Source: Escherichia coli (GTDB taxonomy: Bacteria; Pseudomonadota; Gammaproteobacteria; Enterobacterales; Enterobacteriaceae). From it: DNA of 64,000 nucleotides. The notes under the pieces are model-generated. The model did not search any database, was not told the DNA's origin, and saw nothing but the letters and a program-made list of their open reading frames with translations. Below, in pieces: positions 17,930-21,052 of this stretch (position 1 is its first letter; each line of letters opens with the position of its first letter). The stretch lies in NCBI RefSeq assembly GCF_013315695.1, contig NZ_CP054353.1, one strand, 5' to 3'. Position numbers and translations under genes: made by a program.

Positions 17930-18235
<306 letters not shown>

Positions 18236-18267
18236 TCAGTCAGGGAGGGGGGGACATATATGGCAAA

Positions 18268-18286
18268 AGCCCGGAAAATCCGGGCT
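18268..18286 (-). terminator. Possible terminator hairpin downstream of yifN
   Basis: AGCCCGG AAAAT CCGGGCT stem-loop about 80 nt past the yifN stop. Confidence 0.4.
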
Positions 18287-18363
18287 TCGCAGGTCCCTCA
18301 AGGGGAGAAAACTTAGGGCCTCTATGGGCTACAGAGTCATTATCGGGGATGGTGATTTTATTG

Positions 18364-18813
18364 TCAATTTATGAGCGATATGGCATTGATTGACTTGATG
18401 ACTGCCCTCTGTATGTCTGCAACCAACTCATGTGGCAAACATTGATTAAGATACCCCCGATAAGTCCTTGCTCTGTTTAATCGATTTCGACTGACTTGTT
18501 GTACCAGGTCGGCTTTAGCCCAACGTATCTGCTGATCAAAGAATTGCAGGTCATTGATAACATTACTGGCTATTTCAACATGCATTCCACGATTTAACTT
18601 GTCATGGTCGCGAGTGGTTGATAATGGAACGACGATACATGCGTTGCCATTAATTTTTCCGTTGAGCACGACAACCAACCTATTTTTTATCATCTCAGGT
18701 GGAATGCGGCCATCGTAATACGTCGTGCTGAACTGTCCATTCTGGCTAACAGGATAGTTACCAAAGTTGCATTCCAGTATTTCACCAACCTTGGGGCTGA
18801 AATTAATCGCCAC
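18364..18813 (-). CDS. yifN: PemK/MazF-like (toxin-fold) protein, YifN-like, with no adjacent antitoxin ORF
   Basis: ORF 18364-18855; GEI...RLVVVL...CIVVPLSTT pattern resembles the MazF/PemK fold; start placed at GTG 18813 preceded by TAAGGAGAGG RBS; the alternative GTG at 18855 lacks an RBS. Confidence 0.6.
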   Translation of the reverse strand: MAINFSPKVGEILECNFGNYPVSQNGQFSTTYYDGRIPPEMIKNRLVVVLNGKINGNACIVVPLSTTRDHDKLNRGMHVEIASNVINDLQFFDQQIRWAKADLVQQVSRNRLNRARTYRGYLNQCLPHELVADIQRAVIKSINAISLIN

Positions 18814-19030
18814 GAGTAAACCTCTCCTTAGTAAACTCTGAAAAAGTAATAACACAACGTTACGACCCGATATTTTCTAAGTCTAATGGATTCATGATGA
18901 ACTCCGGTTTCGGCCTTCCCTCTCTGATTTAAACATCCGCAGCCATCCGGTTAGCGGTTTTCACTCGGTCACATTCAAATGCGATTCTGCTACAATCCTC
19001 CCCCCCGTTCGAAGATTGAGCAATATACCT

Positions 19031-21052
19031 ATGCGTCTAAACCCCGGCCAACAACAAGCTGTCGAATTCGTTACCGGCCCCTGCCTGGTGCTGGCAGGCG
19101 CGGGTTCCGGTAAAACTCGTGTCATCACCAATAAAATCGCCCATCTGATCCGCGGTTGCGGTTATCAGGCGCGACATATCGCGGCGGTGACCTTTACCAA
19201 TAAGGCGGCGCGCGAGATGAAAGAGCGTGTCGGGCAGACGCTGGGGCGCAAAGAGGCGCGCGGGCTGATGATTTCCACCTTCCACACGCTGGGGCTGGAT
19301 ATCATCAAGCGTGAGTATGCGGCGTTGGGGATGAAAGCGAACTTTTCGCTGTTTGATGACACCGATCAGCTGGCGTTGCTTAAAGAGCTGACCGAGGGGC
19401 TGATTGAAGATGACAAAGTCCTCCTGCAACAGCTGATTTCGACCATCTCTAACTGGAAGAACGATCTCAAAACACCGTCCCAGGCGGCAGCCAGTGCGAT
19501 TGGCGAGCGGGACCGTATTTTTGCCCATTGTTATGGGCTGTATGATGCACACCTGAAAGCCTGTAACGTTCTCGACTTCGATGATCTGATTTTATTGCCG
19601 ACGTTACTGCTGCAACGCAATGAAGAAGTCCGCGAGCGCTGGCAGAACAAAATTCGCTACCTGCTGGTGGATGAGTATCAGGACACCAACACCAGCCAGT
19701 ATGAACTGGTGAAACTGCTGGTGGGCAGCCGCGCGCGCTTTACCGTAGTTGGCGATGACGATCAGTCGATCTACTCCTGGCGCGGTGCACGTCCGCAAAA
19801 CCTGGTGCTGTTGAGTCAGGATTTCCCGGCACTGAAGGTGATTAAGCTTGAGCAGAACTACCGCTCTTCCGGACGTATTCTGAAAGCGGCGAACATCCTG
19901 ATCGCCAATAACCCGCACGTCTTTGAAAAGCGTCTGTTCTCCGAACTGGGTTACGGCACAGAGCTAAAAGTTTTAAGCGCGAATAACGAGGAACATGAAG
20001 CCGAGCGCGTCACCGGCGAGCTGATCGCCCATCACTTCGTCAATAAAACGCAGTACAAAGATTACGCCATTCTTTATCGCGGCAACCATCAGTCGCGGGT
20101 GTTTGAAAAATTCCTGATGCAAAACCGCATCCCGTACAAAATTTCTGGTGGTACGTCGTTTTTCTCTCGCCCTGAAATCAAGGACTTGCTGGCTTATCTG
20201 CGCGTACTGACTAACCCGGATGATGACAGCGCGTTTTTGCGGATCGTTAACACGCCGAAGCGAGAGATTGGCCCGGCGACGCTGAAAAAGCTGGGTGAGT
20301 GGGCGATGACGCGCAATAAAAGCATGTTTACCGCCAGCTTTGATATGGGCCTGAGTCAGACCCTGAGCGGACGTGGTTATGAAGCATTGACCCGCTTCAC
20401 TCACTGGTTGGCGGAAATCCAGCGTCTGGCGGAGCGGGAGCCGATTGCCGCGGTGCGTGATCTGATCCACGGCATGGATTATGAATCCTGGCTGTACGAA
20501 ACATCGCCCAGCCCGAAAGCCGCCGAAATGCGCATGAAGAACGTCAACCAACTGTTTAGCTGGATGACGGAGATGCTGGAAGGCAGCGAACTGGATGAGC
20601 CGATGACGCTCACCCAGGTGGTGACGCGCTTTACTCTGCGCGACATGATGGAGCGCGGCGAGAGCGAGGAAGAGCTGGATCAGGTGCAACTGATGACTTT
20701 GCACGCGTCAAAAGGACTGGAGTTTCCCTATGTCTACATGGTTGGTATGGAAGAAGGATTTTTGCCCCACCAGAGCAGTATCGATGAAGATAATATCGAT
20801 GAGGAGCGGCGGCTGGCCTATGTCGGCATTACCCGCGCCCAGAAGGAATTGACCTTTACGCTGTGTAAAGAACGCCGTCAGTACGGCGAACTGATGCGCC
20901 CGGAGCCGAGTCGCTTCCTGCTGGAGCTGCCGCAGGATGATTTGATTTGGGAACAGGAGCGCAAAGTGGTCAGCGCCGAAGAACGGATGCAGAAAGGGCA
21001 AAGCCATCTGGCGAATCTGAAAGCGATGATGGCGGCAAAACGAGGGAAATAA
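19031..21052 (+). CDS. rep: ATP-dependent DNA helicase Rep
   Basis: ORF 19016-21052; start at the ATG giving [17 protein letters not shown]... (673 aa); UvrD/Rep helicase motifs. Confidence 0.96.

Follow-up and report, generated by a model that had tools for sequence, protein, structure and literature searches.

A PemK/MazF-family gene of Escherichia coli, yifN, is accompanied by a dedicated small RNA gene that may encode its antitoxin

The window analysed here is a 64,000-nt stretch of Escherichia coli DNA (NCBI RefSeq assembly GCF_013315695.1, contig NZ_CP054353.1) that carries, between ppiC and rep, the gene yifN and, just downstream of it on the same strand, a gene for a small RNA (sRNA). 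Comparison of this locus with its homologs establishes a two-gene module in which a MazF-family protein has a strongly transcribed, dedicated sRNA as its partner; that the two act as toxin and RNA antitoxin is a further step, which we infer. The locus comprises the following features, in window coordinates.

17930-18211, minus strand: ppiC, flanking yifN on one side
18263-18332, minus strand: sRNA gene of ~70 nt (GUAGCCCAUAGAGGCCCUAAGUUUUCUCCCCUUGAGGGACCUGCGAAGCCCGGAUUUUCCGGGCUUUUGCC), the proposed YifN antitoxin
18265-18288, minus strand: intrinsic terminator hairpin with U-tract, which ends the sRNA and also lies downstream of yifN
18295-18306, minus strand: hairpin motif B, UCC-CCUUGA-GGG, like motif A
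18318-18329, minus strand: hairpin motif A, GCC-CAUAGA-GGC, the most conserved segment (alignments A4 and A6)
18339-18367, minus strand: sRNA promoter, −35 TTGACA (18362-18367), 17-nt spacer, −10 GATAAT (18339-18344), 11/12 consensus positions
18364-18813, minus strand: yifN coding sequence, 149 aa, GTG start, TGA stop, an intact PemK/MazF-family gene
18364-18855, minus strand: open reading frame (ORF) of 163 aa, counted from the first GTG in the list of ORFs
18604, minus strand: T of codon His70 (CAT), deleted in K-12 MG1655
18811-18813, minus strand: yifN start codon GTG, the same start as in RefSeq for an identical genome, as annotated by the Prokaryotic Genome Annotation Pipeline (PGAP; WP_000996698.1)
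18821-18829, minus strand: Shine-Dalgarno sequence AAGGAGAGG, 7-nt spacer to the GTG, read from the sequence
18853-18855, minus strand: upstream in-frame GTG, potential start of a 163-aa isoform whose 14 extra residues are found in no homolog
18857-18886, minus strand: putative yifN promoter, TTAGAC (18881-18886), 18-nt spacer, TAACGT (18857-18862), read from the sequence
19032, plus strand: ATG of rep, flanking yifN on the other side

MazF and PemK are textbook type II toxins. To our knowledge they are always discussed together with protein antitoxins, and orphan copies, yifN among them, are usually written off as products of decay. The yifN gene, its family assignment, its pseudogene status in K-12 and a K-12 sRNA without function are known already; neither a functional study of YifN nor a description of an RNA partner was found in the full-text literature (most subscription journals lie outside this scope) or in Rfam 15.

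The first-pass annotation of this region had recognised a PemK/MazF pattern in the ORF between ppiC and rep, had noted a strong ribosome-binding site at an internal GTG and had taken the K-12 copy to be a pseudogene where this copy reads open, and all three observations are borne out. The pattern is present in the translation (VGEILECNF...PPEMIKNRLVVVLNGKINGNACIVVPLSTT), whose sole significant Pfam match is the PF02452 (PemK_toxin) hidden Markov model (i-E-value 1.5e-10; model positions 14-108 of 109, that is, 95/109). The Shine-Dalgarno sequence, with its short spacer to the GTG at 18811-18813, is kept in K-12 and Superficieibacter, and homologs share the start position, with the N-terminus M-A/P-I-N-F. 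PGAP names the product (WP_000996698.1) "type II toxin-antitoxin system PemK/MazF family toxin". In K-12 (NC_000913.3), yifN (b3777) is annotated as a 449-nt pseudogene, and alignment reveals a one-base deletion (GACCATGAC to GACCA-GAC) that breaks the frame into ORFs of 86 and 91 aa; the window copy reads open because base 18604 is present. Ribosome profiling in K-12 and BL21 found yifN initiation at the annotated start and at an upstream start (preprint 10.1101/520783), for which the GTG at 18853-18855 may be a candidate. Upstream of both GTG codons, TTAGAC-18-TAACGT can be proposed, with low confidence, as a weak yifN promoter: its −10 region is kept in Superficieibacter, and it was not returned by the consensus promoter scan.

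Homologs of YifN are ~150 aa long, share 45-86% identity and occur in Serratia, Photorhabdus, Xenorhabdus, Pantoea, Pseudomonas, Aeromonas, Shewanella, Legionellaceae, Roseateles, Herbaspirillum and others; JGI names them "uncharacterized protein YifN (PemK superfamily)", and PF02452 is a precomputed assignment for nearly all of them. YifN itself has no NCBIfam, PADLOC or sequence-level Protein Data Bank (PDB) match and matches only one PHROG, of unknown function. When 1.84 billion cluster representatives were searched with a profile, 478 (50% identity clusters) reached E ≤ 1e-3 and 30 reached E ≤ 1e-30; judged by such searches, the family is small and set apart from mainstream MazF. An AlphaFold model of YifN (pLDDT 79.7, pTM 0.75), compared with the PDB by Foldseek, placed MazF toxins at all of ranks 1-36 (E 2.5e-5 to 2e-3, target-normalised TM 0.62-0.78), including M. 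tuberculosis MazF-mt1/3/6/9, the S. aureus and B. subtilis (YdcE) proteins and B. anthracis MoxT. CcdB came after the MazF toxins, and the type III toxin CptN (4rmo_A) stood at rank 43 (E 0.039). The fold of YifN is thus predicted to be that of MazF and CcdB, an SH3-like barrel plus a C-terminal helix.

Nineteen positions are invariant in the 31-member YifN alignment, including K43, R45, P63, S65, H78, K100 and R111. The first-pass annotation had let its family assignment depend on catalytic residues being present in an alignment, and they are: R45 falls on E. coli MazF R29 (NRLVVVL versus HRPAVVL) and S65 on T52 (VVPLSTT versus CVPCTTQ) in each of three alignments, and R29 and T52 are themselves invariant across a 21-sequence MazF alignment. 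Arg and Thr at these positions (R29/T52 in E. coli, R25/T48 in B. subtilis) are essential in MazF homologs (PMC10893535). Among yifN orthologs, the ratio of nonsynonymous to synonymous substitution rates (dN/dS) is 0.03-0.06 where synonymous sites are unsaturated, which indicates strong purifying selection. YifN is thus conserved and under selection, a MazF-fold protein that is probably catalytically competent, and no relic.

The earlier statement that no antitoxin-sized ORF lies upstream of yifN also stands. The 218-bp upstream spacer (18814-19031) holds no ORF of ≥25 aa wholly inside it on either strand; two ORFs extend into it (18961-19131, minus; 18979-19113, plus), both overlapping the rep start. 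The 152 bp downstream of yifN likewise hold no ORF of ≥25 aa wholly inside. All-against-all BLAST of neighbouring ORFs (≥35 aa, within 900 nt) at 44 species-representative loci found no neighbour family shared beyond close relatives, and same-strand ORFs of ≥40 aa abutting yifN are missing from most of 41 loci and mutually unrelated where found. At these 44 loci, together with loci fetched by exact protein, the flanks of yifN homologs differ wholly between genera:

E. coli and Superficieibacter: rep and ppiC
Photorhabdus: mutS
Serratia: a lipoprotein gene and a merR-type gene
Pseudomonas plasmids and integrative elements: rows of small unknown genes and a methylase-like gene
Xenorhabdus (locus L026) and Pseudomonas (L031, L032): an ssb gene just downstream
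small plasmids: replication genes

The adjacent, co-oriented protein antitoxin gene that marks a type II system is therefore missing at yifN. A protein antitoxin might have been overlooked, either as a tiny unannotated ORF or as a trans-acting protein such as MazE or ChpBI in E. coli; cross-neutralisation has been reported for non-cognate MazE/MazF pairs (PMC10893535), an 11-codon ORF can be read from the sequence upstream of yifN, and a relative in a Vibrio prophage has abutting upstream small genes. We consider this explanation very improbable, however, because the 11-codon ORF is not kept in Superficieibacter, abutting ORFs are mostly missing or unrelated as described above, and the module moves among very different hosts and plasmids, which argues against a host-encoded antitoxin.

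What does lie beside yifN is the sRNA gene. A check for a small antitoxin ORF or an antisense RNA had been proposed in the first-pass annotation; it did yield an RNA partner, but one that is not antisense to yifN. In a consensus scan for sigma-70 promoters, the −35 element of the near-consensus sRNA promoter overlaps the yifN TGA stop codon, and the transcript ends in the hairpin GAAGCCCGG-AUUUU-CCGGGCUUUU. A K-12 transcriptome study of 2014 detected a new sRNA, encoded on the strand of yifN and downstream of it, by RNA sequencing and northern blot, and assigned it no function (PMC4681348). The sRNA segment is ~97% identical between E. coli and Superficieibacter, and yifN synonymous sites differ at 65% (saturated) between the two. 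Reading of the aligned locus sequences revealed no conserved start codon or ORF in the sRNA, and it has no tRNA or tmRNA features and no Rfam family (Rfam 15).

In the 260 nt that follow each homolog's stop codon, the order is nearly universal: a −35 element (often over the stop), a −10 element and then an RNA. The RNAs of this kind, which we call class I, share the layout GU(A/U)GCCC-loop-GGCC, U-rich linker, CCCC-loop-GGGAC, terminator. A covariance model (R1), built from 29 sequences (alignment A4), and an nhmmer profile, built from 11, were used to search 444 kb. R1 returned 44 matches (E 6e-22 to 1e-6) in 43 yifN-family loci, one per locus except for two in a Herbaspirillum locus, and nhmmer agreed; all R1 matches adjoin a yifN homolog, and the two methods together give about 45 loci, counts that start from yifN homolog loci and therefore run in the protein-to-RNA direction. 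R1 had no match elsewhere in the 64-kb window, in the flanks or in the E. coli empty site. The RNA is likewise found on the plasmid pCAR1 and on an IncX1/IncF plasmid of E. coli, and the pairing as a whole spans Enterobacterales, Pseudomonas, Legionellaceae, Shewanella and Burkholderiales, that is, Gamma- and Betaproteobacteria, along with plasmids and integrative elements. In 34/34 loci examined, the distance between the promoter and the RNA 5' end is fixed, and 22 of these promoters match at least 9/12 consensus positions. Viral contigs scanned with a DNA pattern yielded 31 matches, which the covariance model attributes to chance, with one weak hit at E 2e-4.

The usual place of the sRNA is on the same strand, 30-60 nt downstream of yifN; it is convergent in Shewanella, and upstream and divergent in Massilia and in Herbaspirillum sp. 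Sphag64 (exceptional loci L040, L046 and L049). Because strand and position vary in this way, the sRNA is a transcription unit in its own right rather than a 3' untranslated region. The Herbaspirillum locus (L049:2978-3221) has two tandem sRNA genes, each with a promoter, which diverge from the toxin gene and lie ~800 nt upstream of it; a replication-protein-like ORF lies between the sRNA copies and the toxin gene, abutting the latter. Distant YifN relatives (27-34% identity) in Alphaproteobacteria, a planctomycete, a gammaproteobacterial metagenome-assembled genome and a Vibrio tectivirus-like prophage have, at the same position, a promoter and a different, longer RNA. This class-II RNA consists of a 5' GUUCCC hairpin with a co-varying stem, single-stranded YUNAAGAC, more hairpins and a terminator, and has no Rfam match.

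These co-occurrence data bear on the view, favoured by the first-pass annotation, that yifN stands alone, as a decayed or a domesticated gene. Under this explanation yifN would be a genuine orphan, a decaying type II remnant or a domesticated protein, and the promoter, RNA and terminator would be unrelated to it or merely structural, for example a terminator or insulator. It could account for the lack of an adjoining protein antitoxin, for the many yifN pseudogenes of E. coli and Shigella and for the ~1400 complete E. coli genomes that lack the segment. It is largely refuted by the sRNA, whose gene at 18263-18332 lies just outside the interval that the annotation had considered (18364-19030) and which accompanies yifN across taxa, plasmids and integrative elements despite unlike flanks; conservation of the sRNA covers its transcribed 5' part, beyond the terminator, and the dN/dS of 0.03-0.06 is not that of a decaying gene. 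We regard a true orphan as a highly unlikely explanation.

The sRNA has a simple predicted architecture. RNAalifold gave two 3-bp mini-hairpins followed by the terminator, with abundant compensatory change in the terminator only: 10 pairs, 6 with compensatory changes, and 98.6% of alignment cells paired. Motif A pairs in 36/36 sequences, with a CG to GC swap in 2, and motif B is paired in 92-94% of cells with few compensatory changes; these values come with the caveat that alignment A6 was fitted to the model and is hence biased towards the two-hairpin structure. The two motifs are alike, (G/C)CC-N4-6-GG(C/G), and three copies are present in L042, L044 and L045. A rival long-range helix, which joins the 3' half of A to the 3' half of B, is paired in 85% of cells, against 92-100% for the mini-hairpins. 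In L097, a member of intermediate divergence, the layout is that of class I and both mini-hairpins carry GNRA tetraloops (UGCC-GAAA-GGCA at motif A); these loops tentatively favour two mini-hairpins over the long-range helix. Since the 5' domain is conserved chiefly as sequence, it fits recognition by a protein or by a fixed target.

A fixed target could be the yifN mRNA. The sRNA would then act as a type I-like or anti-Shine-Dalgarno antitoxin in which UCUCCCC pairs with AAGGAGAGG and blocks translation. By inspection, UCUCCCCUU pairs with 8/9 bases of AAGGAGAGG; every class-I RNA has a C-rich 5' half in motif B, and the U-rich linker followed by a terminator recalls Hfq-dependent sRNAs. Duplex energies between sRNAs and their cognate 5' regions were, however, no better than those of shuffled RNAs (mostly z −1 to +1, with z < −2 in 2/20 loci), and 21% of the other long-ORF starts in the window pair as well or better (yifN lies at the 21st percentile, 43 start regions). 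A 149-aa soluble MazF-fold toxin is also unlike type I toxins, and the position and strand of the sRNA vary without any cis-antisense overlap. An action on the mRNA is thus quite improbable in our estimate, and because both antisense tests came out against it, we favour direct binding of the sRNA to the YifN dimer.

In the mechanism that follows from direct binding, the near-consensus promoter would supply an excess of sRNA. The YifN dimer, which has two-fold symmetry, would be bound by the two similar mini-hairpins of this RNA and would thereby have its RNA-binding and catalytic groove blocked. That two hairpins match a dimer of such symmetry is no more than suggestive. On plasmids and integrative elements, and in chromosomal islets of which the ppiC-rep spacer of E. 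coli is one, the module would then act as a cassette for addiction or defence. We read the pair as toxin and RNA antitoxin because the protein belongs to a toxin family, has kept the catalytic positions and has no protein antitoxin; because the promoters are asymmetric, with 11/12 consensus positions for the sRNA against a weak candidate for yifN; and because of its location on plasmids and integrative elements and its pattern of decay in E. coli and Shigella.

The distribution of alleles within E. coli illustrates that pattern. The 901-nt stretch at 18200-19100 is 100% identical to E. coli ECCNB12-2 (NZ_CP033635.1) and has at least a partial match in 5379/5426 complete E. coli genomes; the module itself is present in about 74% of them. 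An exact 34-mer with base 18604 present occurs in at least 1088 complete genomes, including O157:H7, and the 34-mer with the K-12 deletion in at least 1228, figures that sort only 2316 of about 4000 genomes because the others have nearby single-nucleotide polymorphisms. Other yifN frameshifts occur in E. coli and Shigella (P0015, P0018, P0040), as do insertion sequences within yifN (P0021, P0024, P0028, P0113). The sRNA segment is found in 4015 genomes and the full-length locus in 3981, and pseudogenised yifN loci retain the sRNA as well (L035, L038, L053, L055). The toxin gene is repeatedly and independently inactivated in E. coli and Shigella and the RNA is retained, as is classic for a decaying pair of toxin and antidote. 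Plasmids with the module number 134, pCAR1 among them, and 59 are conjugative; a Pseudomonas copy lies in an integrative-element-like context. In the genomes without the yifN and sRNA segment, the ppiC-rep gap is 86 bp and unlike the spacer sequence (2930-3017 of the E. coli 2014C-3075 locus L002, compared with window 18212-19031). Superficieibacter has the filled order rep-yifN-sRNA-ppiC, as in the window, and because of this filled arrangement the segment is either old or exchanged via flanking homology.

Set beside known toxin-antitoxin systems, the yifN module has features of several. YifN resembles the type II toxins MazF, PemK (Kid) and ChpBK in its profile match and its predicted SH3-like barrel with C-terminal helix, and in the motifs R-x-x-V-V-L and V-P-x-[S/T]-T, with an invariant Arg and Ser at the Arg/Thr sites. 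It differs from them in having Ser for the catalytic Thr, no NCBIfam model and no sequence-level PDB match; the protein is ~40 residues longer, with a predicted long, low-confidence β1-β2 insertion and a predicted long C-terminal helix, and an sRNA gene stands alongside instead of a MazE/PemI-type protein antitoxin gene. Like type III systems (ToxIN, CptIN, TenpIN), the module joins a toxin of Kid/MazF-like fold to an adjacent non-coding RNA gene, has repeated similar RNA motifs (here 2-3 mini-hairpins) with an integral terminator, and is found on mobile elements. However, the toxin belongs to PF02452 and not to the ToxN, CptN or TenpN families, and where type III systems have an upstream tandem-repeat array processed by the toxin, the yifN module has a single ~70-nt downstream unit with its own promoter; no tandem repeats were found in 18100-19150. 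With type I systems (hok/sok, symE/symR) it shares an sRNA beside the toxin gene and a strong promoter, but it has no antisense overlap and no significant complementarity, and encodes a soluble 149-aa protein in place of a small membrane peptide.

CRISPR-repeat-like RNAs, which include the CreA antitoxins of CreTA and RNA anti-CRISPRs, offer a further comparison: like them, the yifN sRNA has a solitary hairpin followed by a ...CUAAG... tail, its own promoter and an association with mobile elements. In contrast to them, the spacing of its two hairpins misfits a repeat-spacer-repeat unit. Mimicry of CRISPR repeats by the sRNA, suggested by the likeness of its hairpin and CUAAG tail to type I-F repeats and by one locus next to cas6f, was considered and rejected, as its scores against I-F, I-E and I-C repeats were equalled by 3-100% of shuffles; neither RNA class has a Rfam match to CRISPR direct repeats. 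One TARA marine metagenome scaffold (L098:700-1477) has a 154-aa YifN-family gene right after cas6f/csy4 and a two-repeat mini-array, made up of TATATGCTGCCGAGCTGGCAGCTTAGAAA (30 nt) followed by a degenerate repeat; GTAGCCCT, the 5' end of the class-I sRNA, closes the contig. This scaffold could represent cargo beside the array of a CRISPR-associated transposon, or a CreTA-like arrangement. I-F-type repeats were found in none of the other ~60 loci, nor were cas genes.

Such neighbourhoods matter to the main rival of the toxin-antitoxin interpretation, in which YifN is a non-toxic, specialised MazF-fold protein that binds or processes RNA and the sRNA is its substrate or cargo, the two forming a ribonucleoprotein or an enzyme-substrate unit; the effector role would fall to the RNA or to the complex, which might, for instance, regulate genes of the host or of a plasmid or serve as an anti-defence decoy on mobile elements. 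The same co-occurrence evidence fits this arrangement equally, and the K-12 sRNA is expressed alongside a pseudogene yifN. The Pseudomonas module lies among small unknown genes and a methylase-like gene, and ssb is present in three other loci; such small-gene neighbourhoods on mobile elements are known to carry anti-defence genes. One relative stands beside cas6f and a mini CRISPR array, and PADLOC gave no match at the module. Nonetheless, the invariant catalytic Arg and Ser/Thr positions are those that an active RNase would have, yifN has been inactivated repeatedly with the RNA kept, CRISPR-repeat likeness is at chance and cas-type repeats occur in 1 of about 60 loci. On this balance we think a non-toxic RNA-binding unit unlikely, though it deserves more weight than the other alternatives.

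Our preferred interpretation, that YifN is a MazF-family toxin neutralised by its dedicated sRNA through direct binding, in a type III-like manner with a different layout, has in our judgement about an even chance of being correct. The broader proposal is put forward more tentatively, at somewhat short of an even chance: that the module is a new class of toxin-antitoxin system, in which a MazF/PemK endoribonuclease is neutralised by a two-hairpin sRNA with its own promoter, and which would form a fourth type III-like family and a bridge between type II MazF and the type III ToxN-like toxins.

Several observations caution against both. RNase activity, toxicity, RNA binding and neutralisation of YifN are all inferred; the YifN-MazF alignment that places the catalytic residues is weak statistically (hhalign probability 2-4%), and YifN carries Ser where MazF has its catalytic Thr. 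On the RNA side, conservation of the 5' domain lies mostly in its sequence, with thin covariation and a rival helix that fits nearly as well, and expression of the sRNA in K-12 despite a dead toxin gene would fit an sRNA with a function of its own. A downstream RNA with its own promoter, as a single unit without tandem repeats, is unlike every characterised type III system. Lastly, the tectivirus-like prophage of Vibrio phage 10N.239.311.A09_PE001 (L065), mentioned above, has small genes abutting its PemK-like gene upstream, one cro-like and one encoding an 89-aa LexA/peptidase-like protein, and some branches of the family may therefore use protein partners.

That prophage locus (L065:1877-3160), whose PemK-like product is 27% identical to YifN, also has, downstream, a class-II RNA that comes with a promoter and a terminator of its own, and this branch may combine protein and RNA partners.

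Strains differ further around the locus. E. coli 2014C-3075 has a major facilitator superfamily transporter gene and a C-terminal-binding-protein gene upstream of ppiC, on the side away from rep, and both are missing from the ilvC-ppiC interval of the window strain. In K-12 (L003:2315-2410, compared with window 18212-18262), 46 bp flanked by the direct repeat CCCTGACTGACAATT are inserted between ppiC and the terminator of the sRNA. In the window only ~50 bp separate this terminator from the ppiC start, and ppiC may rely on read-through of the terminator. Homopolymer lengths vary by strain: upstream of rep, a C7 run (window 19000-19007) corresponds to C6 in K-12, and another C7 run beside the sRNA terminator (18245-18252) is replaced in K-12. 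Both C-tracts may be hypervariable sites in promoter-proximal DNA.

If the toxin-antitoxin interpretation is true, the orphan yifN of E. coli would be explained and the K-12 sRNA reported in 2014 would be given a function. The PGAP label "type II toxin-antitoxin system" needs correction, as the defining protein antitoxin is absent. On large conjugative plasmids such as pCAR1 and others, the ~650-bp cassette would be a candidate addiction or defence module, and the family would represent a new architecture of RNA-based toxin control that links the type II and type III lineages.

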